From an uncultured Candidatus Saccharibacteria bacterium (GTDB taxonomy: Bacteria; Patescibacteriota; Minisyncoccia; UBA6257; GWB1-50-10), in assembly GCA_964466475.1 (NCBI GenBank), contig CAYXNB010000001.1:44635-108634 (forward strand): a stretch of 64,000 nucleotides of DNA. Reading direction: 5' to 3'. The notes beneath the pieces are model-generated. The model did not search any database. It was not told where the DNA came from and saw nothing but the letters and a program-made list of their open reading frames with translations. The translations under genes and the position numbers were made by a program. This document shows, in pieces, positions 4,345 to 45,548 of the stretch (its first letter is position 1; each line of letters opens with the position of its first letter).

Positions 4345-4370
4345 TTTTGTGTTTCTATCATACTAAAAAA

Positions 4371-5984
4371 ATGAGAATACTTACAGGCAAAAAGTGGCGG
4401 GAAGGATATCTGGACTACCACAAAACCAAGGGAGAGCAGAGGATCCAGGTGCTTGCCTTTAAAAATCTGGAAAAGCTGGAGGGTGTGTACCACACGCGGA
4501 CAAAGAGCTTGCGCCTCTTGTGGAACTACTTCCCTGTTGTCGGGCTTGAAGGACTTATTACCAAAACATGGTCCCGTTTGCGGGAAGAGCGAAGAAATGA
4601 AAAATATGTTTCCTGCGGCATCGGAAAAGTTATTGAGACCGGAGAAGTTGTCGGCTTTGTCGCCCCGTGGCACCCGGCCTTGCCGGAACGTATTGTGTTG
4701 CCGGAGGAATTGATTTTCAAACTTGATGTTTTGCCCGAATTACCGGGGGACGTGATCCTGTATGTTTCTTTGATGAAAAACGCGGATTCCTGCTTTCGCC
4801 GGAATGACAAAGGCAAATGGTGGAGTGCTGCGCGGGCGTGGAGCATCCAGTCCGGTATTACTATTACCGATGCAATGCGGGCGAAGCTTGCGGAAGGCGC
4901 GAAAAAAGAAATCGCCGAAACAAACTGGCAATCCGGTCGGCGCGTTGAATCCGCTAATCCGAGTCCGGTTTCCGAGACGAGGGGTTCCTCAACGGATTCG
5001 GGGCAAAACACCAAAAGCGGCGCACTTTTCGGGTACGGCAATTACGCGAAAATAAACATTATTCCCTACTCAAAACCTTTTGTGAATATCCGGGCAGTAC
5101 ATGAAATTGACCCGACCCAGATATTTTTGGAGCAGGGCATCAATCGGTGGGACACATCTCCCCTGCCAAGACAGGATGAAAAACACGACGTGTATTTTGT
5201 CGCGACCTACAACCATACCCATGTTCCGATCACGCTCCACGCCTTGCGGCAAGGCGCGTATGTGGTGGTGGAAAAGCCGGTTGCCATGGATTATGAGGAA
5301 TTGAACGAGTTGGAAAATGCCTTGCGCGCGGCGGGAAGAAAACTTTTTATCGGCTTCCATAAGCGGTACGGACTTTTCAACAAACTCGCGCTTCAGGATC
5401 TGGGCGTTCAATATGGCGAACCGATCTCCTACCACTCAATCGTGTACGAACTTATCCAGCCGGAACTTTTTTGGTACAACTGGCCTGTTTCGCGCAGCAC
5501 CTTTTTCGCGAACGGATGCCATCAGATCGATCACTTTCTTCATCTCAACAACTTTTCCAAGCCAAAGGATTTTGATATCAAACTTTTGGCCGACGGCGCG
5601 GTTGAGGTCTGGATTGAACTGGAAAATGGCGCGGTCTTCACCACGACGTTTAGCGAAAAGGGGGTGTTTCGCGTGGGGCCGCGGGATCATGTGGAATTAA
5701 AAGTACACAATCGGAACGTGCGGATTACGGATGCCATCAAATACCAATCCGAAGACAATTCCCGCATTATCCGCAAAAAACGGATTTTTAAGACCAACAG
5801 TTATAAAGACATGTATCAGACGATCTGCCGGAAGATCGCGGAGAAAAAAGACGGGGACACCATAGAGTCCGTCGTCATCTCAACAAAACTCATGCTGGAT
5901 TTGGAGGAAAAGCTGCAGGCGCAAAAAGGATGGGGCGACAGATATGCCCGCGCCAAAGATGAATTCTGGCGTTATTTCAGGTGA
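4371..5984 (+). CDS. Gfo/Idh/MocA-family NAD(P)-dependent oxidoreductase with about 220-aa uncharacterised N-terminal extension
   Basis: C-terminal half: Rossmann GYGNYAKINIIPY and the EKP motif (VVVEKPVAMDYEEL) typical of Gfo/Idh/MocA sugar oxidoreductases; N-terminal 220 aa has no recognisable domain. Confidence 0.6.
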   Translation: MRILTGKKWREGYLDYHKTKGEQRIQVLAFKNLEKLEGVYHTRTKSLRLLWNYFPVVGLEGLITKTWSRLREERRNEKYVSCGIGKVIETGEVVGFVAPWHPALPERIVLPEELIFKLDVLPELPGDVILYVSLMKNADSCFRRNDKGKWWSAARAWSIQSGITITDAMRAKLAEGAKKEIAETNWQSGRRVESANPSPVSETRGSSTDSGQNTKSGALFGYGNYAKINIIPYSKPFVNIRAVHEIDPTQIFLEQGINRWDTSPLPRQDEKHDVYFVATYNHTHVPITLHALRQGAYVVVEKPVAMDYEELNELENALRAAGRKLFIGFHKRYGLFNKLALQDLGVQYGEPISYHSIVYELIQPELFWYNWPVSRSTFFANGCHQIDHFLHLNNFSKPKDFDIKLLADGAVEVWIELENGAVFTTTFSEKGVFRVGPRDHVELKVHNRNVRITDAIKYQSEDNSRIIRKKRIFKTNSYKDMYQTICRKIAEKKDGDTIESVVISTKLMLDLEEKLQAQKGWGDRYARAKDEFWRYFR

Positions 5985-7129
5985 GCGGCAATCCGTTCCC
6001 CTGCTTTGCCGTCGCCGTAGGGGTTCCCTGCGCGGGACATACGCTCATATATTTCCTTGTTTTCTAAAAGTTCGCGGACGCCTGAGACAACGCTTTCTTT
6101 TTTCACTCCGACGAGCTTGCTTACCCCGGCGTCAATTCCTTCCTGCCGTTCCGTTTTTTCACGCATGACGAGTACGGGCTTCCCAAGCGATGGCGCCTCT
6201 TCCTGAATACCGCCGGAGTCGGTCAAAATGATATGGGCGTTTTTCATTGTTTCCACCATCTTGCCGTACAGCAGGGGCTCGCAGAGTTCTATATTTTTAA
6301 TGTCTTTTAATTCAGCCTTTACAACTTCGCGCACATTCGGGTTCGGGTGTACCGGAAAGATAATTTTTATTTCGGGATAGGTTTTTGCGATTTCTTTTAA
6401 CGCTTCGCAGATTTCTTTCAGCCCCTCGCCGAAACTTTCGCGGCGGTGGGCGGTTACGAGGATGGTTTTCGTAGAAGTGGATATTTTCTCCCGAGGTTCA
6501 ACCTCATTGTTTAGAGGTTGAACCTCTAAACGCGCAACGGAAAGAAGAGCGTCTATGGCCGTGTTCCCCACCACGTGGATATCCTTTTCATCAATGCCTT
6601 CGCGGAGCAGGTTTTGCTTCGCGGATTCCGTAGGCGCGAAATGAATGTCCGCGAGGCGTGCGATTAACTGCCTGTTTATTTCTTCGGGAAATGGAGCCCA
6701 CTTGTCATGAGTGCGGAGGCCTGCTTCCACGTGTGCCACCTTTATCTTGTTCAAAAATGCGAGAAAGGCCGCAAGGAAGGCGGTTAAAGTGTCGCCTTGA
6801 ACAATGACCATATCCGGCTTTTGTTTTTTCAAAAACCTCATATACCGGAGAATTCCCAAGCCGCTTTGGATTCCGGCTATTCCTTTTTGAAAAATTCCGG
6901 CCCCCCGCCCGAACATTCTGTCGCTTATGGAAATCGGAAATACGACATCAGGCTTGATGCCGAAAACCTTGAGCGTTTCCCCCAGCATCGCTCCGTGCTG
7001 GCGAAATACGCACACGCTTGTTTTCATGCCTTCCTTCCGAAGCGCGGATATGACCGGGGCGAGTTTTATGGCTTCAGGGCGAGTACCGATGACTATGCAA
7101 ATATGTTTCATAGTATTATTTTTTCCCAC
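5972..7129 (-). CDS. wecB: UDP-N-acetylglucosamine 2-epimerase (non-hydrolysing)
   Basis: Full-length match to WecB/MnaA pattern: ICIVIGTRPEAIKLAPV N-terminus, HVEAGLRT, DSGGIQEEAPSLGKPVLVMRE C-terminal motif. Confidence 0.9.
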   Translation of the reverse strand: MGKNNTMKHICIVIGTRPEAIKLAPVISALRKEGMKTSVCVFRQHGAMLGETLKVFGIKPDVVFPISISDRMFGRGAGIFQKGIAGIQSGLGILRYMRFLKKQKPDMVIVQGDTLTAFLAAFLAFLNKIKVAHVEAGLRTHDKWAPFPEEINRQLIARLADIHFAPTESAKQNLLREGIDEKDIHVVGNTAIDALLSVARLEVQPLNNEVEPREKISTSTKTILVTAHRRESFGEGLKEICEALKEIAKTYPEIKIIFPVHPNPNVREVVKAELKDIKNIELCEPLLYGKMVETMKNAHIILTDSGGIQEEAPSLGKPVLVMREKTERQEGIDAGVSKLVGVKKESVVSGVRELLENKEIYERMSRAGNPYGDGKAGERIAAHLK

Positions 7130-8286
7130 TTTTCCGTGGACGACTCTATGGAGAAATGTTCTTTTGCGTATTTGAGACCATTTTTTCCGAGCTCTTTCAA
7201 ATGCGCCTTATTATCATACATAAAAAACAGGGCTTGCAAACAAGCATATTCGTTTTCGTATGACGCTGATTCGCCGCATCCCGCGTTTTTAATAATCTCA
7301 TGCGCCTCGCTTTTTTCATGCAGAAAGCCGAGTGCCGGAAGCCCTGCCGCCATATAGCCCATGAGTTTTGCCGGAACCGCGGGAGTCGTGTTTTTCGCGG
7401 TAAGCGTGATGAGTCCCACATCCATTTCTTTCAGCAGATCTCCGTATTCCTCTTTTGGAACCCAGTTTTCGAAATGTACGTTTTCGACACTCTCTTTTTC
7501 TTTTGCCTCCACAAGCCGTTTTTTTTCCGATCCGTCTCCGCATACCAAAAATACAATGTCCGGATGCGTTTTTTCAATCTTTTTTCCGAGGCGGAGCAAA
7601 ATATCAAGCGCTTGCGAAGGACCCACGACCCCGCCGAAAAATATAATGAACTTTCCCTCCAGCCCGAACTTTTTACGAAACCCCCCTGTGTTTTTCGCCT
7701 CCGCAAACTGCCCTGCATCCACCCAGTGCGGAATGACCTCTATTTTTTCCCCCGGTACGCCCCTTTGTTCCACCAGATAATTTTTGTGCTCATGCGAGGG
7801 AGTCGCTATCACGTCGCACGCCTTGTACGCGCGGTACTCCATGCGCTCGAAATACTTAAGAGCCATCTTGTTCCGGAGCACTCCCAGATCAACCGCGTTT
7901 TGCGGAAAGATGTCCTGAACGTTTAAAACATACTTCGCTCCGTATTTCTTTTTCGCCTGTTCCGCTACCCATGCCAGGGGGAGCGGCGGGCTGTGCACGA
8001 TCGCGGCATCAATCTTCGCGCAATTTTTCTTTACCGCGCGCCAGAATATCCGCGGCATGGTAAGCCATGAAATGCCTTTTACGATAAACGACACATCGTG
8101 ATGCGGCAGGGTTTTTACGCGGATAATTTTTATTCCGTCCTCTTCCGCGACTCCGCTTTTTTCCGCCGAGGTAACGACAGCCACCTCGTGCCCCCTTTTT
8201 TGGAGCGCGGCCGCGAGCCCGCGCATGAGCTCCGCCGCGGACCGAAGATTGGGAGGATACGAATCGGTTACGATAAGTACTCGCAT
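7108..8286 (-). CDS. GT4 glycosyltransferase (WbuB/WcaI-like)
   Basis: MRVLIVTDSYPPN N-terminus and the E-x7-E region typical of GT-B group 1 transferases; gene order after wecB resembles wecB-wbuB arrangements. Confidence 0.75.
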   Translation of the reverse strand: MRVLIVTDSYPPNLRSAAELMRGLAAALQKRGHEVAVVTSAEKSGVAEEDGIKIIRVKTLPHHDVSFIVKGISWLTMPRIFWRAVKKNCAKIDAAIVHSPPLPLAWVAEQAKKKYGAKYVLNVQDIFPQNAVDLGVLRNKMALKYFERMEYRAYKACDVIATPSHEHKNYLVEQRGVPGEKIEVIPHWVDAGQFAEAKNTGGFRKKFGLEGKFIIFFGGVVGPSQALDILLRLGKKIEKTHPDIVFLVCGDGSEKKRLVEAKEKESVENVHFENWVPKEEYGDLLKEMDVGLITLTAKNTTPAVPAKLMGYMAAGLPALGFLHEKSEAHEIIKNAGCGESASYENEYACLQALFFMYDNKAHLKELGKNGLKYAKEHFSIESSTEKWEKIIL

Positions 8287-8993
8287 TAATATTCTTTATT
8301 CCTGTTTTTTAGCGTATTTGTCAGCCAATCATCGAGGAGTTCGGTGTTGGGGATGATGCAGTGCCCGCCGATCTTCCCCGGGACAGGGTTCAAAACCGGA
8401 CGCACCACGTTTTCCCTGCCCAATTTTTTGTATCCTTCGTTATAATCCCTGTTCGGGATTGTATATACTTCTTCAAAATCAAGCTCCATGGCTTCGCAGA
8501 CGCGCTTTACCTCTTTCGCGAAGAGAATGTTCCAGCCATAGTACGAAGTATCGAGAATTTTCGCGAGCTCCGTGGTTTCGCTTTTTGCGAATGTTTTTAC
8601 GGGAATTCCGATGTTTTTGAAATACGCGGCCGCCTCTTCCGCTTTTGGGCCGCCAAAATACTTTACGAAAGTTTTCATACCTTCCGCAAGATGAGGATGC
8701 GTGCCGCGCACCGGGCTATGGACCGCGTCCTTCCCTATCGCGGCCGTTGTTCCCACGGCAACGGTTCCGTGGATGATAACGAGCTCCGAATCATACTCCT
8801 TCGCGTATTCCCGGGTAACCTCGACAAAATTTTTGATCGGAGGGTAACATACGTGAAGTACGCTAAAACTTCCCTTCAGATCGCTTTTTGAATCGCGGGT
8901 TTGCACCGGATACCGGAGCGAGAGCACCTCTTTCAACGCGCTTCCGATTTCACCCTCGCCGACTATGAGATGTGTTTTTCCCCTTTCTTTCAT
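8286..8993 (-). CDS. Short nucleotide-sugar dehydrogenase-like protein (UDP-Glc/GDP-Man dehydrogenase family, lacks C-terminal UDP-binding domain)
   Basis: Rossmann LIVGEGEIGSAL, KSTVPVGTT-like LVIIHGTVAVGTT, and catalytic-Cys region KIGGHCIIPN aligned to GGSCFPKD; only 235 aa. Confidence 0.5.
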   Translation of the reverse strand: MKERGKTHLIVGEGEIGSALKEVLSLRYPVQTRDSKSDLKGSFSVLHVCYPPIKNFVEVTREYAKEYDSELVIIHGTVAVGTTAAIGKDAVHSPVRGTHPHLAEGMKTFVKYFGGPKAEEAAAYFKNIGIPVKTFAKSETTELAKILDTSYYGWNILFAKEVKRVCEAMELDFEEVYTIPNRDYNEGYKKLGRENVVRPVLNPVPGKIGGHCIIPNTELLDDWLTNTLKNRNKEY

Positions 8994-11007
8994 GTTTTTT
9001 CAGTTCGTGTATTTTAGCATCTATCATAAGCTGATACCACCAGCCCTGAAGCACATGAAACAAAAAACCCTCCTTTCCGTCAAGAATTCCCAGACGCACC
9101 ACATACCGATAGAAAAAATAGAGGCCGGGACGGATAAAGAGCGGCAGGTTTCCGTATATCCGCTCTTTTACCCACCTTCTTTTTTCTATGCGCTCCCCCC
9201 CGAGCCGCGCCTCCACCCGACCTGTTTTTTTCTCCCGCAACCGTTCGCGCGCCTCTCTTGACGAATATGAGTTATGCTTCGCGATCCAGGCCTCAAGGCC
9301 GTTTTTATTTTCATCCACAAAATCATGCTTCAGTCGTCCGGCCCGGCCACCCTGAAGCACCACGTGTTCATCCACCTCGCGCTCCTCGTACCAGGCCTTC
9401 CCCTTTCGAAACAGGCGGAGTATCCAGGTTGGATAGTACCCGCCGTGCCGGATCCAGCGGCCCAAAAAATATCCCCGCCGCTTCATGTAGTATCCCACGA
9501 TATCTTCCGGCGTTTTCGGGAGCGTTTCCCGTATCTCCCTCGCTATCTCGGGGGTCAGATATTCGTCCGCGTCAAGGCGCAATATCCAGTCGCCCCGCAT
9601 TTCTATATTTCCCAGCGCCCAGTTAAACTGGTCTGCCTGATTCTCAAACTCGTGTTCATAGAAGCGCACGCCGTACATTTTCGCGATTTCGCGAGTCGTG
9701 TCCGTGGAGAACGAGTCCACCACGATAATTTCGTCCGCGACGTCCTTTATGCTTTTCAGGCACGCCCCCAGGTTTTTTTCCTCGTTTTTCGTCAGAATGA
9801 CGGCGGTTACGGATACCTTCTTTTTTTCTTCCATACAATCTTGATAGAGCCGTATAAATTCTTCGGCGATTTTTTCTCCCGTAAATTTTTCCCTGACCAA
9901 CTCCCTTCCCCGAACTCCCATTTCCTCCGCCTCTTTTTTCAACGCTTCGCGAATCCCCCGCGCGAGCGCGTCTTCATTTTTTTCCACCACAATCCCCGCG
10001 TTCGCCTTTTTTACTTCGGGAGCGATGCCTACTCCGCTCGTAAGGACTACCGGAATTTTCAGATACATCGCCTCCACCGCGGACATTCCGAAACTTTCCA
10101 TGTATGAGGGCAGCACAAGCGTCTTCGCGGCACGAAGAAGGCCTATTTTATTCTTGCCCGTTACCAGGCCCGCGAATACCACGCTCCCTCCAAGTCCGTT
10201 CTCGGCAATCATTTTCCGAATTTCCGTTCCGTATCCGTCTTCGTCACTCCCCGCAAGGACCAGCACCACGTTTTTGTTTTCTTCCCGCACTTTTTTGAAT
10301 GCCGGAATGAGCGTGTCTATGCCTTTTATCCAGTTCAGCCGCCCCAGGAATAAAACAATGTCCTTTTCCCCCTTGCCGGCTATCCCCAAATTTTTCCGGA
10401 CGATCTCTTCCTCCTCCCCTTCTTCTTTCTCGATCTCTTCGTTTATGCCGTTCGGGATTACGCGCACCTGCCGCGGGTTCGGAAAGCCCTGCTCCTTGTA
10501 TTCCTCATATTCGCGCTCTATGGTTGTGTGCAGCGCCTCAGCGCGCGCAATATTTCTACCCTCCACAAGCGCGATGTAGAGATTTTTCAGAAGCGTCCTC
10601 CTCCCGCCCATGGCTTGCTTCATCAGGCTTCCGCGAGGCGATATGATATACGGAATTCCGTATTTTCTCGCATAGTATCCGGCGAGGGTCGAGGTTGCCC
10701 GAAAGACAGAGTCGGTGTGAATCACGTCAAACTGGCCCGCGGTTTCGCGGAGCTTTTGATGCATGGCGCGCGAATATTCCCATGCCCGAGGAAATGAGGT
10801 CGGGAAATACCACACACGCACCCCGTCCACAACCACCTCCTCGTTTTTCGGCACGTCCAGCGTGTTTTTCCCGTCCATGTCCGTGGTATAGACCGTTACG
10901 TCCACTCCTTTTTTTACCAGCCATTTGTTCAGGTTGTGCACCGAGGCAATGGGGCCCCCGTACCGGTGTGCGGGCACGTACACAGACGCGAGATGAAGTA
11001 TTTTCAT
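8950..11007 (-). CDS. Bifunctional glycosyltransferase: N-terminal GT4 domain fused to C-terminal GT2 domain
   Basis: N-terminus MKILHLASVYVPAHRYGGP plus the E-x7-E region (GT4); C-terminus VSVTAVILTKNEEKNL, VVDSFSTDTT, LDADEY (GT2 DxD); 685 aa. Confidence 0.75.
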   Translation of the reverse strand: MKILHLASVYVPAHRYGGPIASVHNLNKWLVKKGVDVTVYTTDMDGKNTLDVPKNEEVVVDGVRVWYFPTSFPRAWEYSRAMHQKLRETAGQFDVIHTDSVFRATSTLAGYYARKYGIPYIISPRGSLMKQAMGGRRTLLKNLYIALVEGRNIARAEALHTTIEREYEEYKEQGFPNPRQVRVIPNGINEEIEKEEGEEEEIVRKNLGIAGKGEKDIVLFLGRLNWIKGIDTLIPAFKKVREENKNVVLVLAGSDEDGYGTEIRKMIAENGLGGSVVFAGLVTGKNKIGLLRAAKTLVLPSYMESFGMSAVEAMYLKIPVVLTSGVGIAPEVKKANAGIVVEKNEDALARGIREALKKEAEEMGVRGRELVREKFTGEKIAEEFIRLYQDCMEEKKKVSVTAVILTKNEEKNLGACLKSIKDVADEIIVVDSFSTDTTREIAKMYGVRFYEHEFENQADQFNWALGNIEMRGDWILRLDADEYLTPEIAREIRETLPKTPEDIVGYYMKRRGYFLGRWIRHGGYYPTWILRLFRKGKAWYEEREVDEHVVLQGGRAGRLKHDFVDENKNGLEAWIAKHNSYSSREARERLREKKTGRVEARLGGERIEKRRWVKERIYGNLPLFIRPGLYFFYRYVVRLGILDGKEGFLFHVLQGWWYQLMIDAKIHELKKHERKGKNTSHSRRG

Positions 11008-12473
11008 GCTTTTTTGCGGATCATTCCCATAATTTCCCTAAATGCTTTTTCCCGCATTGTATATAACATACCCGCGTATACCGCCCCTGACAATACCACG
11101 TTCCCCAACACGTGCAGTCCGCTCATTTTTATAATCGCACTTCCCCCCGCCATGATCGCGGAGGCGGCGAGTATTTTTCCTAACTGCGGACGCACCCGCA
11201 CTCCTGAAATTTTTTCCGCAAAACCCCAGACAAGCGTCATGTAGAGAAAAGCCGTTGTCGTAGTCGCCACGGCGGCGCCGAGCGCTCCATAGGCCGGAAT
11301 GAGAAGCGCGTTTAGGGCCACATTGGTTCCTGACGCCACTATCGTCATCCAGATCGCGTTTGCCTGTTTATCGTACGCGAACAGAAGGTTGAAAAATATA
11401 GCGAATGGACTGCTTGCGATCGTCATTAAAAGCAGTATCCATAATACGCCCCCCGCTCCAATATATTCCCCACCGAATAAGAACCCCAAAAGATCGTTCC
11501 CCACCACAAATCCGCCCGCGATAAACGGAAGGGTTACGAGATACGTTGCCTGGAGCGCCCCGCGCGCGGTTTCCTCCATCCTTTTTACGTCCTTTTGATG
11601 CACGAATCTCGAGACCGCGGGAAAGATTGCGGTCGCGATGATTCCGGGCAGAATGCTTAGTATCCCCACAATCCTCTGGGATGCCGCGTATTTTCCTATT
11701 TCTTCCGCGGTTCTCCACCATCCGAGCATTACAATGTCCACGTTGAACAGAAATAGGCTCGCGAATCCGGAGATGGCAAGCGGCCAGGCGGATTTCAATA
11801 TCGGCAAAATCAGCGCCTTTTTTGCGTTTTTTATCAATCCCCTTAGGAACGGGCGCGCCATGCCCGCGGCAACGCATGCGCCGAGGATGGCTGCAAAGGC
11901 ATATCCCATGGCGAATGCCAGAGGCGTTTTTGAAATAAGGAGCGCGACTATGCCGCAAAGAGCGACCAGCGCATTTGACGCAACCGTAACCGCGGCCTCA
12001 AGCTCCATTTTTTCCTTGCCCCGAAAAAGCGCGATCAAAAAGTCCCGCATATCATCCGCCACCAAAATCAGCATGACAAGCGGCAGAATCGGCAGCGCTT
12101 CCTCCACGGAACTCAGGAACGGCGCGACTCCGACCATGAGCGCGGCCGTTACAAGAAGAAGCCCCACCTCAATCCAGAGCGCGGTTGCTATATAAAACGG
12201 CTCCTCCTCCGTTTTTTTCGCTATTTCGCGCGTAAGGATGGAGTCAACTCCTATATTTTTTATAAATATAAAAAAGCCCATGAGGCCCATGGCGTATGAG
12301 AAAACTCCATATCCTGAAGCGCCCAGAACCCGTGCCGCGTATATCACGACCAATCCCTTTAAAAGCCTGCTCCCCGCGCTTCCCGCAAAGAGCCACGCCG
12401 CGTTTTTTACTATTGTTTCCTTTGTGCCGGCCATACGCGAAACACTATGCATTTTTTCTCTCCTCCCGTCCAT
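11004..12473 (-). CDS. Wzx-like polysaccharide flippase (MOP/oligosaccharidyl-lipid flippase family)
   Basis: 489 aa, about 12-14 predicted TM helices, N-terminal IVKNAAWLFAGSAGSRLLKGLVVIYAARVLG typical of polysaccharide biosynthesis protein family. Confidence 0.65.
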   Translation of the reverse strand: MDGRREKMHSVSRMAGTKETIVKNAAWLFAGSAGSRLLKGLVVIYAARVLGASGYGVFSYAMGLMGFFIFIKNIGVDSILTREIAKKTEEEPFYIATALWIEVGLLLVTAALMVGVAPFLSSVEEALPILPLVMLILVADDMRDFLIALFRGKEKMELEAAVTVASNALVALCGIVALLISKTPLAFAMGYAFAAILGACVAAGMARPFLRGLIKNAKKALILPILKSAWPLAISGFASLFLFNVDIVMLGWWRTAEEIGKYAASQRIVGILSILPGIIATAIFPAVSRFVHQKDVKRMEETARGALQATYLVTLPFIAGGFVVGNDLLGFLFGGEYIGAGGVLWILLLMTIASSPFAIFFNLLFAYDKQANAIWMTIVASGTNVALNALLIPAYGALGAAVATTTTAFLYMTLVWGFAEKISGVRVRPQLGKILAASAIMAGGSAIIKMSGLHVLGNVVLSGAVYAGMLYTMREKAFREIMGMIRKKA

Positions 12474-13716
12474 ACGTTAGCGCCACATGAAGAACTCCTA
12501 AAATTACGAGCGATTTTATGAGTCCGGCGTAGACGGGCGAAACCCAGTCCTCCGTCCCCTTCACTACCTGGAACCAGACGACCGCGTATATCATGATGCC
12601 GGAAAGGGCTTTGCCGGACTGCTTTATCAAACATTCATATAAAAACCTCCAGACGGCTCCGAGGGCCATCATGCCCCAGATAACGCCCGCAAGTCCGAAG
12701 TTCATATACCAGTCGCCCATGTTCGTCGGTCCTATTGTCGAGGTTACGGTCGGATGAAGGATCCCCAGCCGATGACCCAGGCCGCTCCCCCCGCTTATTA
12801 CCGGCTTTGTTTTCCAAAGTATTCTCGGAGGACCCAAACTTATGAAAAATTTTTTCAGGGATTTTTCTTCGAGAAGCGGGTCTATGTTTTCCACGATTTT
12901 TGAAAACACCACAAACTGGTTCAGGCGACTTAATGAACTTTCCGCGGCAAATCGCGCGGCTCCGCCTATTGCTCCCGCCCCACCGGATGCCTCCCCAAGA
13001 TACGGGGCGAGTATCTCCGGACTTCTGCACGCGCTCCCCAGAGGGAGGGCCGTGAAAACAGCTACCGCGCATATTCCGACCAGTTTTTTCCAGCGTATCG
13101 CCCCCCCGTACCACAGGACCATACACCAAGCAATGACGGGTACGATAAACGAAGTTCTGTTGCAGGAAGGAATCGCGTAGATCATCTCGCCCGCAAACGT
13201 TCCCCACGCCGCGTACTTCCATATCCGCGATCCCGCGCCTCCCCGTGCCCGCGCGCGAAGATGCATTCCCCACGCGATTACGAGCGCGGCGTATCCAAAA
13301 ATTGAGAGCATCCCCATCGCGCTAAACCACGGGCTTTTTTCAAGCGGTGTCGGGATCACGTGAAACCGATAGGCGCCCCCCGCGATCTGGATAATCTTCC
13401 CGGCTGTCGCAAAAAACCACAGCACGAACCAAACTATACGCGCCCTTTCTTCCTTCCAATCTTTTCGCAGTCCGGCGCCTATCCTTTTTTCCGCTCCGTT
13501 CAATATTCGCATTCTGTATCCGATAAAAAAACTTGAGCATCCAAGGATCGCGTATATAAGCGCTATCGCGTTTATGTTTTTCGGAACCCCCACGCTTTCG
13601 CTAAACCAGTCCCCAACCCCCAGAATGGCGAGGAGCGGAGCCGAAAAAAATATGACCCCGTAATAGAGGGTTGCGGAAAATCCGAGAGAGAAAGGATCAA
13701 TGCCCTTCTTATCCAT
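12445..13716 (-). CDS. Polytopic membrane protein, candidate O-unit polymerase (Wzy-like)
   Basis: 423 aa, about 10+ hydrophobic segments with a large loop; sits between flippase and glycosyltransferases; no strong motif, assignment by context. Confidence 0.35.
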   Translation of the reverse strand: MDKKGIDPFSLGFSATLYYGVIFFSAPLLAILGVGDWFSESVGVPKNINAIALIYAILGCSSFFIGYRMRILNGAEKRIGAGLRKDWKEERARIVWFVLWFFATAGKIIQIAGGAYRFHVIPTPLEKSPWFSAMGMLSIFGYAALVIAWGMHLRARARGGAGSRIWKYAAWGTFAGEMIYAIPSCNRTSFIVPVIAWCMVLWYGGAIRWKKLVGICAVAVFTALPLGSACRSPEILAPYLGEASGGAGAIGGAARFAAESSLSRLNQFVVFSKIVENIDPLLEEKSLKKFFISLGPPRILWKTKPVISGGSGLGHRLGILHPTVTSTIGPTNMGDWYMNFGLAGVIWGMMALGAVWRFLYECLIKQSGKALSGIMIYAVVWFQVVKGTEDWVSPVYAGLIKSLVILGVLHVALTYGREERKNA

Positions 13717-15442
13717 GTTTTTGCTTTGTAAAATCCCTTCTCTGAATCTCTATATCGTCCACCCGTTCTTCCGTGGATTTTTCCGCAGTTATCATCACTC
13801 CATATCCCCATAAAAACGGAATCTTGAACCTGCAGATGCTGTTCAGGCGTCTCGCGCGGCGAAGCGCACGGTGCGCCCCGTACAACCATTCGTTCGTCTT
13901 TCGCAACGCCTGTTTTCCGTAGGCGGGGTAGAGGGCGAGAGCGAGGAGCGCCACCAGATGATTTGGTATCGCTACGATAATCCCGCGATAATCGGAGAAG
14001 AGGACGGAAAATCCGCTGTGCCGAAGAAGGATGTGAAGCGTTTTCGGAGAATAGACGTGGTAGTGATGATCCGGAAAATCCTGGTACAAGGGTACGCTTA
14101 AAAGCAGCTTCCCGTCCGGAGCAAGCGTCCTTCGTATTTCTTCAAGAGTTTTTTTATCTTCCCACACATGCTCCAACACCTCGGTCATCACCGCGTATTT
14201 GAAGTAATTATCGGGAAACGGAAGGGGCTCCGTAACGGACTGCCTGCGAAACCATTCCGGTTCCGCGATTCCGTTATCCACCACGTCCACCAGGTAAGTT
14301 TCTTCGCACTTTTTTTTGATGTCCGGATAGTCCCTGCCCTCATAGTCCCCTATGACGAGCACCGGTCCCCGGTCAATCGTATCCAGAATATACCTGTTTT
14401 GGGTGTATCCGCCCGGGAAGTCTGACATGGTTTTCTCCGGAAACGCCTTTCTAAAAAGTCGACGCGGAAATGTCCGCGCGCCCTTGTGGGCGCGATAGCC
14501 CAACCTCACCACCCGCCTCGGAAGAAGCAGAAACGGCAGGGCTATCCAGAATTCTAGGAAATTCCAATAAAGCCGAAATGCTTTGTTTATTTTCGGCGAC
14601 TTCGACGCGAACCCTGTTTCATGTCCCAGCGCCCGCTCCACCACAACCGCTTTCCACGCTTTTCGAAATTGCGCCCGCATTGCCCCACGCAACACTCGTT
14701 TTTTTAAAAATTTTTTAAACCGGAGTGCGACCTTAGAATAGTTTATCCCGTGCACCTCAAAGGAATCGTACCAGCGCGCTTCTCCGGACGGCTTTGGATT
14801 ACTCCACACGCACGGCTCCTGAAGAAAGCGTAATCTCCCCCCTCCTTTTGTTATCACGTGAAGCACGAGGTACAACCCTGATAGCGTTGTCCCTATGCAT
14901 TCTTCCGCGCCCCCCATCCCGCTTTCCGCCACCTCTTTTTTAATAATTGTCATCGAAGGGAACCCCAAAAGCCCTATATTGATCGCGACAATCTCGTTCG
15001 AATCCCGAAATACCCGGTCGCCACCCAAATCCAAAGCAACATCCCGTTTGTCATATACGCTTCTCGAATTTACCCAGACGAAAGACGTTTCCGGATCTTC
15101 CGTAACGCATCGGAGAACTCTTTTTACCGCGTCCGGCGCCATGACGTCGTCTCCGAACCACCAGACATATTTTCCCCCGGCTTCTTTTGTCAAAAATAAG
15201 AGCGCCATGTCGTATCCTCCTTGTTTCGCTTTCTCTCCCTTATAATACCGGAGCGTTCCCGGGAACCGCGAAATTTCTTTTTCCACTATTTGTTTTGTTT
15301 CATTGCCGGGGCTATCGTCGCGTATCACGATTTCAACCTCCGGCCTCATCTGCTTTCCCACGCATTCCAGGAATGCCCGTACCCGTTCCGGCTGATTTAT
15401 GGTCGGCAGGCAGATGCTTAAAATAATGGTTTTCTGACTCAT
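13709..15442 (-). CDS. GT2 glycosyltransferase fused to C-terminal class I SAM-dependent methyltransferase
   Basis: N-terminus IILSICLPTINQPERV, IRDDSPGNET, WWFGDDV (GT2; paralog of 21837..22862); C-terminus VLVIGDYEGRDYP and VMTEVLEHVWEDKKTLEEIRRTLAPDGKLLLSVPL (MTase motifs I and post-II); start at internal Met giving 4-nt ATGA overlap with upstream gene. Confidence 0.65.
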   Translation of the reverse strand: MSQKTIILSICLPTINQPERVRAFLECVGKQMRPEVEIVIRDDSPGNETKQIVEKEISRFPGTLRYYKGEKAKQGGYDMALLFLTKEAGGKYVWWFGDDVMAPDAVKRVLRCVTEDPETSFVWVNSRSVYDKRDVALDLGGDRVFRDSNEIVAINIGLLGFPSMTIIKKEVAESGMGGAEECIGTTLSGLYLVLHVITKGGGRLRFLQEPCVWSNPKPSGEARWYDSFEVHGINYSKVALRFKKFLKKRVLRGAMRAQFRKAWKAVVVERALGHETGFASKSPKINKAFRLYWNFLEFWIALPFLLLPRRVVRLGYRAHKGARTFPRRLFRKAFPEKTMSDFPGGYTQNRYILDTIDRGPVLVIGDYEGRDYPDIKKKCEETYLVDVVDNGIAEPEWFRRQSVTEPLPFPDNYFKYAVMTEVLEHVWEDKKTLEEIRRTLAPDGKLLLSVPLYQDFPDHHYHVYSPKTLHILLRHSGFSVLFSDYRGIIVAIPNHLVALLALALYPAYGKQALRKTNEWLYGAHRALRRARRLNSICRFKIPFLWGYGVMITAEKSTEERVDDIEIQRRDFTKQKHG

Positions 15443-16662
15443 GTTTTTTTTGCGAAGAATTTTTTTATTGTTTCCGCAATATACTCCACTTCCGCCTGCT
15501 TCAGGTACGGGTGGCATCCCACGTAAAACCCGCTCTCATTGATCCATGCTGCCACCGGATAGTCCTTTTCGATTTCTCCAAAATATTTTTTATATACCGG
15601 CTGATTTATGAGCGGCACCATCTCTCTGGTCTCTATTTTTCGTTCCTCTAGGAAATTCACCAGGTCGTGTTTCTTGCCGTTTCTCAGTACGATGGGATAC
15701 ATCATAAAATTATGATCCCTGTCCTTGGGCGCACGGGGAAGCTGAATTTCATTCTCAAGACAGGAGAGGCGTTCGGTATACACCTTTGCTATCTTCCTTC
15801 TTTTTCTGATGTTTTCCGCCCGTGTTTCGAACTGCGCCACTCCAATCGCCGCCTCAAGCTCCGTCGCCCGCATGCTGTGCCCGAACCGCACGAATGAAAA
15901 GCGCTTTTCCACGATAAGGGAAAGTTTCTTTTTGGACACATTGTCGTCCGCGTCTATATTAAGGTAGATTGAATCCCGCCCGTGGTTCATAAAACTTCTC
16001 ATGATAATTGCGAGTTCTGGATCGCTTGTAATCGCGAGTCCCCCGACTCCGGTTACCAGAAAATGCGCCACGTATGTTGAAAAACATCCCACATCTCCGA
16101 AAGACCCCACTTTCCTTCCCTTGTGCCTTGCAAACATGCATTCACAAGAATCCTCAAGCACCCGGAGGCCGCGCTTTTTCGCCACCGCCATCACGCCGTC
16201 CATGTCGCACGGGAGCCCGAACAGGTGCACGGGGAGTATCGCTTTTGTCCGCGGAGTTATTGCCGCCTCTATCTTCTCCGGATCTATGTTGTAAGTATCT
16301 CTTTCCACGTCCACAAACACCGGACGCATATTGTTGTATATGACAATATTGGAGGTAGCGATAAACGTTACCGCAGGCACGATCACTTCGTCTCCGTCCT
16401 TCCATTGGTACTTTTCTTTCATTGCCGCAAGCGCCATATGGAGCGCGCTTGTGCCGCTATTTGAAAATACGGCGAATTTCGCCCCATGCTCTTTCGCAAA
16501 TATATCCTCAAATTTTTTACTCCATGGTCCGTAAGAAAGACGCCCGCTTTTTATCACGTCTGCGAGATATTTTTTTTCCTTTGCACCGAATTTAAATCCG
16601 GCGGATCCAATGGGGTGCTTTGGTTTATATTCCATGTTTTTTTGATACAATCTCCGCTTCAT
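15439..16662 (-). CDS. PMP-dependent sugar 3-dehydratase of DegT/AHBA-synthase fold (E1/ColD-like; Schiff-base Lys replaced by His)
   Basis: DegT-family fold; active-site segment FSTYVAHFLVTGVGG aligns to FSFYANKIMTTGEGG of the bona fide aminotransferase at 23524..24627, with His at the Lys position as in ColD/E1 dehydratases; adjacent to gmd and fcl-like genes. Confidence 0.6.
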   Translation of the reverse strand: MKRRLYQKNMEYKPKHPIGSAGFKFGAKEKKYLADVIKSGRLSYGPWSKKFEDIFAKEHGAKFAVFSNSGTSALHMALAAMKEKYQWKDGDEVIVPAVTFIATSNIVIYNNMRPVFVDVERDTYNIDPEKIEAAITPRTKAILPVHLFGLPCDMDGVMAVAKKRGLRVLEDSCECMFARHKGRKVGSFGDVGCFSTYVAHFLVTGVGGLAITSDPELAIIMRSFMNHGRDSIYLNIDADDNVSKKKLSLIVEKRFSFVRFGHSMRATELEAAIGVAQFETRAENIRKRRKIAKVYTERLSCLENEIQLPRAPKDRDHNFMMYPIVLRNGKKHDLVNFLEERKIETREMVPLINQPVYKKYFGEIEKDYPVAAWINESGFYVGCHPYLKQAEVEYIAETIKKFFAKKT

Positions 16663-17578
16663 ACCATTCTATTGTTTTTCGGAGACCCTCTTCAAATCCT
16701 GTCCGCGCCCGAAAGCCGAATTCCCGTTCCGCCTTTGCTACATCCAGCATTCTTTTTGGCTGACCATCCGGCCTTGTCGGATTCCACCGTATTTTTCCCC
16801 GGAAGTTCATGTGTGCTGCTATGTTTTCCGCAAGATCTTTTATGGAGATTTCCATGCCGGACCCAAGGTTTACGGGATCGGGTTTTTCATACTTTTCCGT
16901 CGCGAGAACTATTCCTTCCGCCGCGTCTTCAACATACAAAAATTCACGCGTCGCCGTGCCGCTCCCCCACACCTCCACCTCCGCCTTTCCAGCTTCTCTT
17001 GCTTCGCGGATTTTGCGAATAAGCGCGGGAATCACGTGCGAGGAATCGAGGTCGAAATTGTCTCCGGGTCCATAGAGGTTGATCATAAGAAGATGGATAC
17101 CTGAAAACCCGTACTCCGCGTAATACGACCGCGTTTGTTCAAGCATCATTTTTTTCGCGATACCGTAAGGCGCATTTAATTCCTCCGGATATCCGTCCCA
17201 TAGAGATCCTTCGCGAAACGGAGTCGGACAATATTTCGGATAGGAGCAGACCGTCCCTATGCCCACGAATTTTTTTATTCCCGCCCTGTAGGATGCCTCC
17301 ACCATATTCAGCGCCATTGCCGCATTATCATAAAAAAGCACTGCCGGATGCTCTTTGTTGAAGCCTATGCCCCCGACCACTCCCGCGAGATGGATGACAA
17401 CATCCGCCCCGCCAACCGCGCGATCACAGGACTCTCTTTGTCGCAGATCGAATCCGGGGCGCCGGGGAACTCGAATATTTTCTTCTGCAACCCCCCGTTC
17501 GACGAGTTTTTTTCGCACATACGCGCCCAGAAATCCGGCTCCTCCTGTTACCACCACTTTTTTATCGTGCAGTATCAT
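16625..17578 (-). CDS. fcl: GDP-L-fucose synthase family epimerase/reductase (Fcl/ColC-like)
   Basis: VVVTGGAGFLGAY Rossmann, catalytic Y-x3-K (PYGIAKK), 317 aa; immediately downstream of gmd with ATGA overlap. Confidence 0.7.
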   Translation of the reverse strand: MILHDKKVVVTGGAGFLGAYVRKKLVERGVAEENIRVPRRPGFDLRQRESCDRAVGGADVVIHLAGVVGGIGFNKEHPAVLFYDNAAMALNMVEASYRAGIKKFVGIGTVCSYPKYCPTPFREGSLWDGYPEELNAPYGIAKKMMLEQTRSYYAEYGFSGIHLLMINLYGPGDNFDLDSSHVIPALIRKIREAREAGKAEVEVWGSGTATREFLYVEDAAEGIVLATEKYEKPDPVNLGSGMEISIKDLAENIAAHMNFRGKIRWNPTRPDGQPKRMLDVAKAEREFGFRARTGFEEGLRKTIEWYEAEIVSKKHGI

Positions 17579-18552
17579 CGTGTTTTCTCCTCTCTTACCC
17601 GCCGCACGTCCTCTTCGACCATCATGCGGACAAGATCTTCAAAGGAAGTTTTGGGCTTCCAGCGGAGATGCTTTTTCGCTTTTTCGATATCTGCAACGAG
17701 GTTCTCCGGCTCGTTTCTCCGCTTTTCTGTCATATTTTCCGAAACATACTTTTTCCAATCAAGCCCGAGCATTCCGAATGCCCGTTCCGTGAATTCTTTT
17801 ACCGTGTGAGTCCTGCCGGTCCCTATAACATAATCGTCCGGTTCTTTTTCCTGGAGCATAAGCCACATGGCCTCCACATAGTCGCCCGCGAATCCCCAGT
17901 CGCGCCTGGCGTTTAGATTACCCAGATTCAGCCCGCATTCCTTGCCGTACCTGATCCCTGCCGCGGCATGCGTAATTTTCCTTGTTACGTACATTTCATT
18001 CCTTCTCGGCGATTCGTGGTTAAACAAAATTCCGGTGCAAGCAAAAACTCCGTATGCTTCCCGATATATTCTTGTGAGCTGCAGCGACGCGGCTTTTGCG
18101 ACTCCGTAGACCGAAATCGGGGCATAGGGCGTTTTTTCGTTCTGAGGGAAAATTTTTGTCTTGCCGAATATCTCGCTTGATCCCGCTCCGAAAAATCTGC
18201 ACCCGCTTCCCTTTCGCTTCAGGGCGGCGAGGAATATCTGGGTTGCCATTGCGTTTATGGCGATTGTTTCCGTTTCTTCCTCCGGGCGCTGGGACTGCTT
18301 TTGGCCGGCCAGATGATAAATTTCATCCGGACGCACGGCGACCAGATTCTTCACGAAGTTTTCATCCCCCACGGATCCGCGACGCATCTTCACGCGACCC
18401 TCAAGGTGGCGTATCCTCCAAAATTCCGGACTTTTCCAAGAAATTTTTTGGCGCGTCACTCCTACTATGTCATATCCCTTTTTCAAAAGAAACTCTGCCA
18501 GATATGATCCGTCCTGTCCGGTCATTCCTGTTATTACCGCCTTTTTCTTCAT
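17575..18552 (-). CDS. gmd: GDP-mannose 4,6-dehydratase (copy 1)
   Basis: [55 protein letters not shown] hallmark Gmd motifs; start set at internal MKKKAVITG giving ATGA overlap with upstream gene. Confidence 0.85.
   Translation of the reverse strand: MKKKAVITGMTGQDGSYLAEFLLKKGYDIVGVTRQKISWKSPEFWRIRHLEGRVKMRRGSVGDENFVKNLVAVRPDEIYHLAGQKQSQRPEEETETIAINAMATQIFLAALKRKGSGCRFFGAGSSEIFGKTKIFPQNEKTPYAPISVYGVAKAASLQLTRIYREAYGVFACTGILFNHESPRRNEMYVTRKITHAAAGIRYGKECGLNLGNLNARRDWGFAGDYVEAMWLMLQEKEPDDYVIGTGRTHTVKEFTERAFGMLGLDWKKYVSENMTEKRRNEPENLVADIEKAKKHLRWKPKTSFEDLVRMMVEEDVRRVREEKTR
17831..17916. repeat. 86-bp tract 100% identical to 19782..19867 (gene-conversion tract between gmd paralogs)
   Basis: taatcgtccggttctttttcctggagcataagccacatggcctccacatagtcgcccgcgaatccccagtcgcgcctggcgtttag present in both gmd copies while flanking coding sequence is diverged. 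Confidence 0.8.
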
Positions 18553-19466
18553 GTGTTTTTTTCCCACCACCGGCACTCCGGAGCCCACTCCTTCATGCGG
18601 TTGTAGGTCAGACGAAGTCCTTCCTCTAAGGTGTGTCGCGGCTCCCAGCCGGTCAATTTTTTTACCAACGAAATGTCACATCGAAAATTCATCGGGCCGG
18701 ATACCTGCTTCCGAAGATCGCGTATTTTTTTTCCGGAAATTTCTCCCAATATATCCGCTATGCGCTTTACGCTGACCGATGTGCCAGTGCCCAGATTCAC
18801 AATTCCGGTGTATTCCGTATCCGTCAATTTTACGATTGCCTCCGCCGCATCGTCCAGATACAAAAAGTCCCGCACCGGATCCCCGTTCCAAATAGTCACC
18901 TCTTCCGGCCCTAGTATATTTTGCACTAAGGTCGGCACAAGGTCAGGACGTACAAGTTTTGTCGGTCCGTAAATGTTTGAGAATCGGATGACGATGGAGG
19001 GGACTCTGTCCTTATAAAAACACACAACCTCTTCCGACAGGTGCTTGCTAAATATATATTCGTTTACATATGGATTCGTCTCCTGACTTTCATCCACTGG
19101 CAATTTCATTTTCCTTTCATCATAGAGCAGTATGGTTGTGAAGCAGACAAATTTTTTTATGTTCCTTTTTTGAAAATAAAAGAGCGCCTTTTTTATAGGC
19201 AGAACGTTTTTTTCAATGCCGATAATCGGATCTCTGTTTATGACGTGGTGATCGGAACTTCCGATAAGAAATATCACCTTTTCTACCTCCACGCTGTCTA
19301 GCGCGCGGAGATCGTCCATGCTCTCCAGATGGATGTGCTCGTTTTTTACATAGTCCGGCGGCTTTGTTCTGCCCACCGATATAATATCGGGGTATTTTTC
19401 CAATATAATCGGCCCCAAAAATCCACTCCCTCCGAACAACAATGTTTTTCCCCCGTATTTTTTCAT
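18549..19466 (-). CDS. NAD-dependent epimerase/dehydratase (extended SDR), candidate GDP-4-keto-6-deoxymannose reductase (Rmd-like)
   Basis: LLFGGSGFLG Rossmann, Y-x3-K (YIFSK), 305 aa; sandwiched between two gmd genes. Confidence 0.55.
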   Translation of the reverse strand: MKKYGGKTLLFGGSGFLGPIILEKYPDIISVGRTKPPDYVKNEHIHLESMDDLRALDSVEVEKVIFLIGSSDHHVINRDPIIGIEKNVLPIKKALFYFQKRNIKKFVCFTTILLYDERKMKLPVDESQETNPYVNEYIFSKHLSEEVVCFYKDRVPSIVIRFSNIYGPTKLVRPDLVPTLVQNILGPEEVTIWNGDPVRDFLYLDDAAEAIVKLTDTEYTGIVNLGTGTSVSVKRIADILGEISGKKIRDLRKQVSGPMNFRCDISLVKKLTGWEPRHTLEEGLRLTYNRMKEWAPECRWWEKNT

Positions 19467-19470
19467 GTGG

Positions 19471-20505: not shown

Positions 20506-20522
20506 GTTGTTTTCTTTATTAC

Positions 20523-21800: not shown

Positions 21801-21836
21801 GATTGCCTTACAATATCAAAGACCTTGCTCTTTTGT

Positions 21837-43191: not shown

Positions 43192-43223
43192 AGCGCCATC
43201 ATATCACAGGTTGCTACGACCTG

Positions 43224-45479: not shown

Positions 45480-45520
45480 ATGCCCTATTCTGCCAGGTTT
45501 TTTGTTTATCCTCAAGAAAT

Positions 45521-45548
45521 CCAAAAACCGCCCGAAGGCGGTTTTTGG
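45521..45548. terminator. Bidirectional rho-independent terminator hairpin (CCAAAAACCGCC-CGAA-GGCGGTTTTTGG)
   Basis: Perfect 12-bp stem with A/T-run flanks immediately downstream of the surface-protein gene stop (45588). Confidence 0.6.

Follow-up and report, generated by a model that had tools for sequence, protein, structure and literature searches.

How much of a UDP-glucose dehydrogenase (UGDH) is required to make a working enzyme? This question is raised by a 64,000-nucleotide stretch of DNA from an uncultured Candidatus Saccharibacteria bacterium (contig CAYXNB010000001.1; "the window" refers to this stretch at its full length), which encodes two unusually short members of the UGDH superfamily: protein A, of 235 aa (8286..8993, minus strand), and protein B, of 267 aa (39546..40349, minus strand). 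Full-length UGDHs (Ugd, HasB, TuaD and the human enzyme, hUGDH) comprise three domains, PF03721, PF00984 and PF03720. In hUGDH, the six conserved active-site residues are Thr131, Glu161, Lys220, Asn224, Cys276, and Asp280, and the C-terminal domain anchors UDP-glucose, primarily via its UMP part (PMC3129169), while Glu161 is the base in thioester hydrolysis (PMC3265891). Both window proteins consist of an NAD-binding and a central helical domain and lack the UDP-binding C-terminal domain, an absence claimed in the original prediction and borne out here by Pfam, by a hidden Markov model (HMM) of the C-terminal domain and by fold matches. On balance, we favor the explanation that A and B are selectively maintained, stand-alone two-domain members of the superfamily, B being a putative minimal UDP-glucose 6-dehydrogenase and A a putative derivative of the branch that contains the UDP-ManNAc dehydrogenases WecC and Cap5O.

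Protein B has a partial match to the NAD-binding domain PF03721 (1e-20, profile positions 72 to 183) and a match to the central domain PF00984 (1.2e-22) that spans profile positions 2 to 93 of 94. The Rossmann features are present as G9xG11xxG14 with the acidic Asp32, followed by the motifs KSTIVPGST and GGFCFPKD, and 41 residues lie between Cys226 and the C-terminus. Using phmmer, B aligned with residues ∼79 to 303 of full-length UGDH structures (4a7p, 6.7e-29). An AlphaFold2 (AF2) model computed from the family alignment is confident (predicted local distance difference test score, pLDDT, 93.2), and a Foldseek search of the Protein Data Bank (PDB) with this model returned 3vtf (E 9e-20), with 3pid and 3gg2 also at E ∼1e-19 (TMq 0.83). 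In each case, the match corresponds to the first two domains of the UGDH structure.

For protein A, the Pfam scan returned the central domain alone (PF00984, 6.1e-7, profile positions 2 to 68 of 94, above the gathering score of 25.4), with no Pfam match for the NAD-binding domain. The GxGxxG signature is present as G12xG14xxG17 with the acidic Asp34, the fold superposes on UGDH N-terminal domains, and only 23 residues separate Cys212 from the C-terminus. The AF2 model from the family alignment has a pLDDT of 94.0, and its best Foldseek matches in the PDB are 3phl (4e-11), 3plr (1.6e-10) and 4r16 (6.5e-10), with TMq values of 0.76 to 0.78, covering the N-terminal and central parts of full-length UGDH and UDP-ManNAc dehydrogenase. 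The structural modeling that had been proposed for both proteins gave confident predicted two-domain folds that match the N-terminal and central parts of UGDH-type enzymes. Judged by these two domains, both A and B fall within the UDP-glucose/GDP-mannose dehydrogenase superfamily; its third domain, PF03720, is absent from both. The original prediction had also described a Rossmann fold, a KSTVPVGTT-like block and a catalytic cysteine in both proteins. All three are recognizable, but the block in A reads HGTVAVGTT, with a glycine at the near-invariant Ser76, and the second motif of A is GGHCIIPN. Position 76 is part of an "HST" motif equivalent to the "KST" of UGDH; it is Gly in the window protein, Ala in its closest relative and Ser in 73 of 77 family members, and the window protein also has Ala for the usual Pro three residues further on.

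The truncation of A and B is genuine and conserved. Pfam detected no PF03720 in either protein, and both end at the domain boundary. The stop codon of A and the ATG of the next gene share one base (TAATG), and the start of A overlaps the upstream gene, a fusion of glycosyltransferases of families 4 and 2 (GT4-GT2), by 44 nt. Similarly, the stop of the gene for UDP-glucuronate decarboxylase (UDP-xylose synthase, UXS) overlaps the start of B (ATGA), and the stop of B overlaps the following HD-domain open reading frame (ORF) by 4 nt. With flanking genes overlapping both ends of A and B, there is no room for a lost domain. The C-terminal domain HMM, built from six full-length proteins of the candidate phyla radiation (CPR) and two further sequences, had no match in any of the six reading frames of the whole window. 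Over 88 CPR/DPANN loci (10 kb on either side) and 80 viral loci, it matched only its six full-length source proteins, and among 390 homologues of A and B there were zero matches. A tblastn search of phage records with one C-terminal domain proved too insensitive, as it missed the 383-aa enzyme of S-SSM7, and was not used as evidence. In addition, an independent Logan assembly (SRR5011273) contains an identical A ORF with the same neighbors.

A full-length gene cut by a sequencing or assembly frameshift, the outcome that the original prediction had itself raised as fatal to its proposal, thus has a negligible probability. The adjoining genes abut or overlap both ORFs, no frame of the window carries a C-terminal domain signal, the A ORF is reproduced in the second assembly, and all close and distant relatives are equally short. 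A frameshift or pseudogene was ruled out on these grounds. A split gene with its C-terminal domain on a neighboring ORF was likewise ruled out by the negative HMM searches of the window, the 88 and 80 loci, and the 390 homologues.

Rather than isolated oddities, A and B represent two large, conserved families of short proteins in Patescibacteria (CPR), DPANN archaea and phages. The original prediction had suggested looking for the same truncation in relatives, and hundreds to thousands of equally short homologues were found. The best 120 database relatives of B belong to Patescibacteria (Parcubacteria/Paceibacteria, Jorgensen-, Lipton- and Nealsonbacteria) and, with the exception of a single 454-aa protein fused to a SIS domain, measure 197 to 300 aa. 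The best 120 relatives of A measure 220 to 298 aa. Patescibacteria account for nearly all of the 196 GTDB species representatives with relatives of A, and some are DPANN archaea. The ORF called for A, using a simple longest-ORF heuristic on the fetched loci, was 214 to 272 aa in 74 of 76 GTDB loci. A profile of the A family, searched against 1.84 billion representatives, collected 1713 clusters (at 50% identity) at E ≤ 1e-3, of which 644 reached E ≤ 1e-30. Only 16 of the best 150 matches to this profile exceeded 310 aa, and ten of these 16 were scanned with Pfam: five contain HNH or helix-turn-helix (HTH) domains of homing-endonuclease type, one contains an intein, and four contain at most PF00984. 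The C-terminal domain HMM matches none of the 150, whatever their length. In the 420- to 475-aa members P0274, P0286, P0328, P0374, and P0306, the A domain continues, by fusion or read-through, into HNH/HTH or NUMOD3 modules like those of homing endonucleases. Such modules point to carriage of many A-family genes by phages or other mobile elements.

The short forms are also common in viral sequence. At least 221 IMG/VR viral contigs encode short proteins of the B type (244 to 327 aa, 32 to 54% identity), and 21 encode A-like proteins. A scan of metagenome contigs with the single B protein gave three loci only, all distant. Among cultured phages, short forms labeled "UDP-glucose dehydrogenase" are found in Campylobacter phage vB_CcoM-IBB_35 (257 aa) and phage C48C1 (319 aa), and BFVD adds Microbacterium phage Fireman (262 aa) and Campylobacter phage F379 (256 aa). 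The single SIS fusion (P0044, Liptonbacteria, 454 aa, in L001 to L003) is a B homologue with a C-terminal SIS_2 (GmhA-like) domain. It is surrounded by genes for GmhB-like HAD phosphatases, a carbamoyltransferase, a DegT protein, two short-chain dehydrogenases/reductases (SDRs) and a CTP_transf_like protein, a neighborhood that hints at a heptose-type pathway.

The two families are homologous to each other, though not closely (hhalign probability 97%, 20% identity), and have different full-length relatives. The nearest full-length relatives of B are UGDHs, with 30 to 35% identity to those of CPR bacteria. For A, a profile search of the PDB gave UDP-ManNAc dehydrogenases as the best matches (4r16, 2.5e-6; Cap5O, 3ojl, 7.5e-6), and its sole blastp match to a full-length protein was WecC-like (L062, 29% identity). 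In a neighbor-joining (NJ) tree, which is rough, being based on 229 shared columns without support values, the CPR B family and all viral short forms form one clade beside full-length UGDHs, and the A family forms a separate clade beside WecC-like proteins. Since the clades of A and B sit beside different full-length groups, the tree gives an indication, and suggests no more than that, that the C-terminal domain was lost separately in the two lines.

The original prediction treated A and B as equivalent mini-enzymes, which does not hold at the level of the active site: B keeps all six canonical residues, while A keeps three. In B, these are Thr87, Glu110, Lys165, Asn169, Cys226, and Asp230. 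Across 32 CPR sequences of the B family, Lys85-Ser86-Thr87, Pro109-Glu110-Phe111, Lys165, Asn169, Cys226, Lys229, and Asp230 are invariant or nearly so, and all of them are kept in 60 of 60 viral relatives, except Lys85 (45 of 60). A further feature of the family is Arg220, located six residues ahead of the catalytic cysteine, which is present in 32 of 32 CPR and 53 of 60 viral sequences and is replaced by Ile or Leu in the four full-length proteins compared. We infer that Arg220 may compensate for the lost UMP-anchoring domain by binding the diphosphate.

Protein A retains Thr77, Lys145, and Cys212. The remaining three positions are substituted family-wide, with Glu replaced by Val or Ile (Val95 in A), Asn by Thr149 and Asp by Asn216, so that Pro215-Asn216 stands where canonical enzymes show Lys-Asp. 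Among 135 cluster representatives, which were analyzed along with 77 species using a register from hhalign and HMMER, Cys212, Lys145, and His99 are each present in 134, Asn216 in 132 and Thr149 in 127, and position 95 is never Glu. His75, His92, and His211, along with His99, are further near-invariant residues of the family. Lys207, in the cysteine loop of A, was considered as an analogue of Arg220 and rejected, as this position is Lys in 30 and Pro in 21 of the 77 species of the wider family. One 657-aa member (P0339) carries a LAGLIDADG-type intein inserted exactly before Cys212 (GGH|CLDGEE…IVHN|CVTSN), where the catalytic cysteine would act as the +1 splice nucleophile. Inteins typically occupy functionally critical sites, and the insertion here marks the Cys212 site as one of these.

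The gene context of B fits an enzyme that supplies UDP-glucuronate. As originally predicted, B is translationally coupled, through the ATGA overlap, to a bona fide UXS gene (40346..41293, minus), whose product matches human UXS1 over its full length in a phmmer search of the PDB (4gll/2b69, E 1.7e-118). The arrangement is repeated in a second genome (L053), where a B homologue overlaps a UXS orthologue with 58% identity, placing B with UDP-glucuronate consumers in both. In viral loci, an extended SDR directly adjoins the B-like gene on the same strand in 58 of 75 cases, and the best solved relatives of these SDRs are UDP-hexose, UDP-HexNAc or UDP-GlcA 4-epimerases (4zrm, WbpP, WbgU, 6zl6). A B-like dehydrogenase with a GalE/WbpP/TviC-like SDR therefore constitutes a widespread two-gene phage module, often with glycosyltransferases nearby. 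In Vibrio phage Kuja, the dehydrogenase of the same dehydrogenase-epimerase module is a full-length UGDH (413 aa); in phage C48C1 it is a short form, an exchange suggesting that the short form does the same job. A UXS deprived of its substrate, one of the options in the original prediction, is unlikely, because a short dehydrogenase recurs beside UDP-sugar SDRs. A C-terminal domain partner, the second option, was not found in the window or in the 88 and 80 loci. Of the three options, a minimal enzyme fits B best.

The 261-aa HD-domain protein that follows B (38764..39549, minus; PF01966, 5.2e-6) has no homologue in the other fetched loci; a different HD protein (181 aa) follows an A homologue and a full-length UGDH in L044. 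Upstream of UXS-B are three genes (41277..45524, minus) encoding a 206-aa protein, a 444-aa Wzy_C-like protein and a 766-aa Wzy_C/TPR-like membrane protein. By blastp, these match the genes upstream of the B homologue in L094 (444 aa, 42% identity, 4.6e-97; 766 aa, 27%, 3.7e-56; 206 aa, 27%, 1.4e-14), so that the two upstream blocks are syntenic. The 766- and 444-aa Wzy_C/O-antigen-ligase-like proteins with TPR tails (41857..45524 in the window) recur beside A- and B-type genes in 22 related loci, and such large proteins may be glycan-attaching enzymes that use the products of the A and B pathways.

Protein A is encoded in an O-antigen-like array of overlapping ORFs on a single strand, in the order Fcl-like SDR, perosamine-synthase-like DegT, GT2-methyltransferase, polymerase, Wzx, GT4-GT2, A, GT4 and WecB, and the order from the SDR to A recurs in another genome (L006 to L008). 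Immediately upstream of A is the GT4-GT2 fusion (8950..11007, minus; assigned by Pfam, with the same gene call in the Logan contig), preceded by a Wzx-type flippase (11004..12473, minus) and an O-antigen-polymerase-like membrane protein (12445..13716, minus), which correspond to PF01943/PF01901 gene calls on the identical Logan contig. Downstream, the start of the GT4 gene (7108..8286, minus; Pfam) shares one base with the stop of A, and WecB, a non-hydrolyzing UDP-GlcNAc 2-epimerase (5972..7129, minus; TIGR00236, 427.7 bits, cut-off 210), lies two genes downstream. The original prediction had A following wecB; in transcription order A is upstream of wecB, with the GT4 gene in between. The related proposal that A stands where WecC would be expected needs revision: A derives from the WecC/Cap5O branch, but its link to wecB is weak, with WecB within 10 kb in only 14 of 80 loci. 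In addition, a full-length UGDH- or WecC-like enzyme is encoded in six A loci, and in L044 its gene is the one directly adjacent. Given this co-occurrence, A is not a mere substitute for full-length UGDH or WecC.

Across related loci, the surroundings of A are glycan-related with varied content. Within four genes of A in the 76 GTDB loci, a UDP-sugar-type SDR is present in 29, GT4 in 19, Wzy_C/TPR in 19 and Wzx in 17; within 10 kb in 80 loci, an SDR is present in 44 and DegT in 18, along with the 14 loci that have WecB. Of the 15 loci whose A is closest to that of the window, 6 have WecB within this distance. Orthologues of the downstream GT4 lie beside WecB in L018, L023, L014, L013, and L019. 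This GT4 was considered as an obligate partner of A and rejected, as its orthologues are 1 to 8 kb away in other genomes and the association is not conserved. No universal neighbor family among the A loci, and no fusion among homologues, pointed to any obligate partner. A gene for an adenylyl/cytidylyltransferase resembling rfaE domain II (∼150 aa; TIGR02199, 9.7e-23) is present in 14 of 76 loci and directly upstream of A in 11. These eleven conserved operon heads (∼146-aa rfaE-like protein followed by A; L027, L043, L044, L047, L051, L052, L063, L071, L074, L075, and L078) are divergent from a ∼770-aa Wzy_C/TPR gene in 8 of 11 cases and downstream of a gene for a ∼1100- to 1450-aa protein in 7 of 11.

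The locus of A in the window also holds a GDP-sugar gene set (15439..22862, minus), which includes a perosamine-synthase/ColD-like DegT (15439..16662, minus), a GDP-fucose-synthase-like SDR (16625..17578, minus), a GDP-mannose 4,6-dehydratase (19471..20505, minus; PF16363, 494 bits), a sugar C-methyltransferase (20523..21800, minus) and two further SDRs. The SDR and DegT neighbors had prompted the idea that A or B is the Ugd of an Ara4N-like Ugd/ArnA/ArnB triad. This was rejected for the window, where the SDR is GDP-fucose-synthase-like and the DegT perosamine-synthase-like, so that the pair belongs to a GDP-sugar branch and not to Ara4N synthesis. Converging on wecB is a 545-aa ORF with a TTG start (4347..5984, plus), in which a GFO_IDH_MocA NAD-binding domain is confined to residues 275 to 337 and the first ∼260 residues have no Pfam match. 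This ORF, along with L005 and L179, prompted the idea that A performs the WbpA-like first step of a WbpA/B/E/D/I-type pathway, which was rejected as a general explanation, with GFO homologues in 3 of 80 loci.

Taken with the residue patterns, these contexts suggest how each protein may work. The most likely role of B is that of a UDP-glucose 6-dehydrogenase working in minimal form. B would oxidize UDP-glucose to UDP-glucuronate in an NAD+-dependent reaction, using the canonical cysteine thiohemiacetal/thioester mechanism, with the substrate held by contacts of the N-terminal and central domains to the glucose-1-phosphate portion. From UDP-glucuronate, the coupled UXS would next produce the UDP-xylose needed by the neighboring surface-glycan machinery. 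For A, the best explanation is a nucleotide-sugar dehydrogenase that is NAD-linked and depends on its cysteine, with remodeled catalysis. A would act in an O-antigen-like glycan locus on a substrate of the UDP-N-acetylhexosamine type, made by WecB or by 4-epimerase-type SDRs. With the thioester-hydrolyzing Glu and the Asp/Asn pair lost, the second half-reaction of A probably differs from the textbook one: oxidation to the acid may proceed with a histidine as base, or the thioester or aldehyde may have another fate.

Comparison with known systems places these proposals. B resembles UGDH in its Rossmann fold, complete central domain and six active-site residues, in its 27 to 35% identity to full-length enzymes, which are its best sequence and fold matches, and in its pairing with UXS or a 4-epimerase. 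Unlike UGDH, it has no C-terminal Rossmann-like UDP(UMP)-binding domain, its N-terminal domain is shortened between beta2 and the "VPTP" strand, the "EG" of NPEFLREG is "AK" in the CPR B family, and Arg220 replaces Ile/Leu. A shares the "H-x-P-x-R" and "GGHC" motifs with UDP-ManNAc dehydrogenases (WecC, Cap5O, the Pyrococcus horikoshii PH enzyme 4r16) and with the related UDP-HexNAc 6-dehydrogenases TviB, WbpA, and WbpO, as well as a setting in glycan loci with WecB, GT4 and 4-epimerase-type SDRs, which we take to resemble the Cap5P-Cap5L-Cap5O or TviB-TviC sets. In contrast to these enzymes, A lacks the C-terminal domain, has Val/Ile for the Glu of "PER", Thr for Asn and Pro-Asn for Lys-Asp, and has WecB nearby in a minority of loci.

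The phage short forms (IBB_35, YP_009590789.1, 257 aa; C48C1, WJE87914.1, 319 aa; Fireman, 262 aa) share the two-domain architecture and the NJ clade of B. They differ from it in being only 28 to 31% identical, set among phage replication and nucleotide genes and annotated by similarity only. B matches PHROG 9148 ("UDP-glucose dehydrogenase"; 1.9e-50), in which short and long forms are mixed. The truncation goes unmentioned in the IBB_35 genome paper, where the suggested role is no more than speculative (PMC3322345). A full-text search of the literature found no study of UGDH homologues lacking the C-terminal domain. The original prediction also allowed that proteins of this length might belong to a different characterized enzyme class, for which no evidence was found. 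Members of the 6-phosphogluconate-dehydrogenase C-terminal-like superfamily (N-PAC, 2uyy; Psf3, 5u5g) do resemble A in combining a Rossmann fold with an all-helical domain in ∼230 to 290 aa (TM ∼0.5 to 0.6, normalized by either chain), but these matches are much weaker than those to UGDH, the catalytic cysteine loop is absent, and profiles place A and B in the UGDH family.

Several observations weigh against reading A and B as stand-alone sugar-nucleotide dehydrogenases. To our knowledge, no enzyme of the UGDH family has been shown to work without its C-terminal domain. None of the curated NCBIfam models accepts A or B: against TIGR03026 (cut-off 189.8), B scores 163 bits and A 37 bits; B scores 104 to 124 bits against the Ugd equivalogs NF011631 and NF041297 (cut-offs 670 to 757), and A 22.9 bits against the WecC model NF008286 (cut-off 459). 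A lacks three of the six canonical residues, including the Glu of thioester hydrolysis (PMC3265891). About a quarter of A loci have no glycan genes within 10 kb and the neighbors vary, and a UDP-sugar SDR is not universal in CPR B loci, as in L092 and L093, where the neighbors of B are GH5-like and DUF2206 proteins. The SIS fusion and the rfaE-domain-II-like genes upstream of A hint at substrates other than UDP-sugars. Finally, the search for a C-terminal domain in trans, or for a full-length UGDH in the same genome, extended over the window and the fetched loci.

These points bear most directly on a possible but doubtful alternative, in which A and B act on another class of substrate or by another chemistry: ADP- or CDP-activated sugars or polyols, sugar phosphates, or lipid- or polymer-linked sugars, with A perhaps stopping at the aldehyde or resolving its thioester with a nucleophile other than water. 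The absence of the UMP-anchoring domain from both proteins would be accounted for, as would the invariantly non-canonical residues of A at three catalytic positions and its extra invariant His75, His92, His99, and His211. The nucleotidyltransferase directly upstream of A in 11 loci, the B homologue fused to SIS_2 beside GmhB-like HAD genes (L001), and the full-length UGDH or WecC-like genes in some A loci, which imply that A is not redundant, point the same way. However, B has the full set of canonical residues and sits beside UDP-uronic acid and UDP-hexose enzymes, the commonest neighbor of A is a UDP-sugar-type extended SDR, the rfaE-like link is seen in only ∼18 of 80 A loci, and the SIS fusion is a single protein cluster. 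A bolder version of the stand-alone explanation, which we regard as unlikely, would hold that the UMP-anchoring domain is dispensable and was lost at least twice, giving rise to autonomous enzymes of ∼230 to 270 aa that are standard in CPR/DPANN organisms and many phages. A would then represent a new enzyme class, in which the Cys212 thioester passes the uronyl group to another nucleophile (e.g., an amine, yielding uronamides), the aldehyde is released, or the carriers are ADP-, CDP- or lipid-linked.

It is quite unlikely that A and B are catalytic subunits whose nucleotide is bound by a partner, be it the adjacent SDR, the GT4 or a C-terminal domain encoded elsewhere. SDRs and GT-B glycosyltransferases have UDP-binding domains of their own, and the start/stop overlaps in UXS-B-HD and GT4/GT2-A-GT4, together with the tight SDR adjacency in phages (58 of 75 loci), would suit such a complex. 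Yet the full-length UGDH of Kuja has the same epimerase neighbor, so that this adjacency reflects a shared pathway; no stand-alone C-terminal domain ORF was found in the window, the 88 CPR/DPANN loci or the 80 viral loci; neither A nor, in CPR genomes, B has a universal neighbor family; and dehydrogenase-SDR or dehydrogenase-GT fusions number 0 among 390 homologues. Very unlikely is a non-catalytic role, as decaying pseudogenes or NAD-binding regulators, with UXS fed by imported or otherwise made UDP-glucuronate. CPR bacteria are host-dependent with reduced metabolism, both proteins fall below curated family cut-offs, and the window A has Gly at the near-invariant Ser76, all of which would agree with decay. 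Against it stand a sequence conservation of 40 to 80% identity across hundreds of species, in which the Cys, the Lys and the NAD motif are invariant, retention of the genes by streamlined phage genomes, the intein at the catalytic cysteine and the confident AF2 folds.

The A and B families are visible in databases and unrecognized as a distinct architecture, and the present labels of these short genes are inconsistent, ranging from "hypothetical" to "NAD(P)-binding" and "UDP-glucose dehydrogenase". Two large, stable families dispense with a domain that textbooks and structures treat as the main sugar-nucleotide anchor, and they occur in the most streamlined genomes and viruses, within surface-glycan gene sets with a probable role in attachment to hosts. 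If A and B prove inactive or partner-dependent, many automatic annotations would be corrected. An altered chemistry in A would mean a reaction new to nucleotide-sugar metabolism, and a B that works by itself would be the minimal catalytic unit of its enzyme class, useful for enzyme engineering and for annotating CPR/DPANN glycan pathways and phage auxiliary genes.

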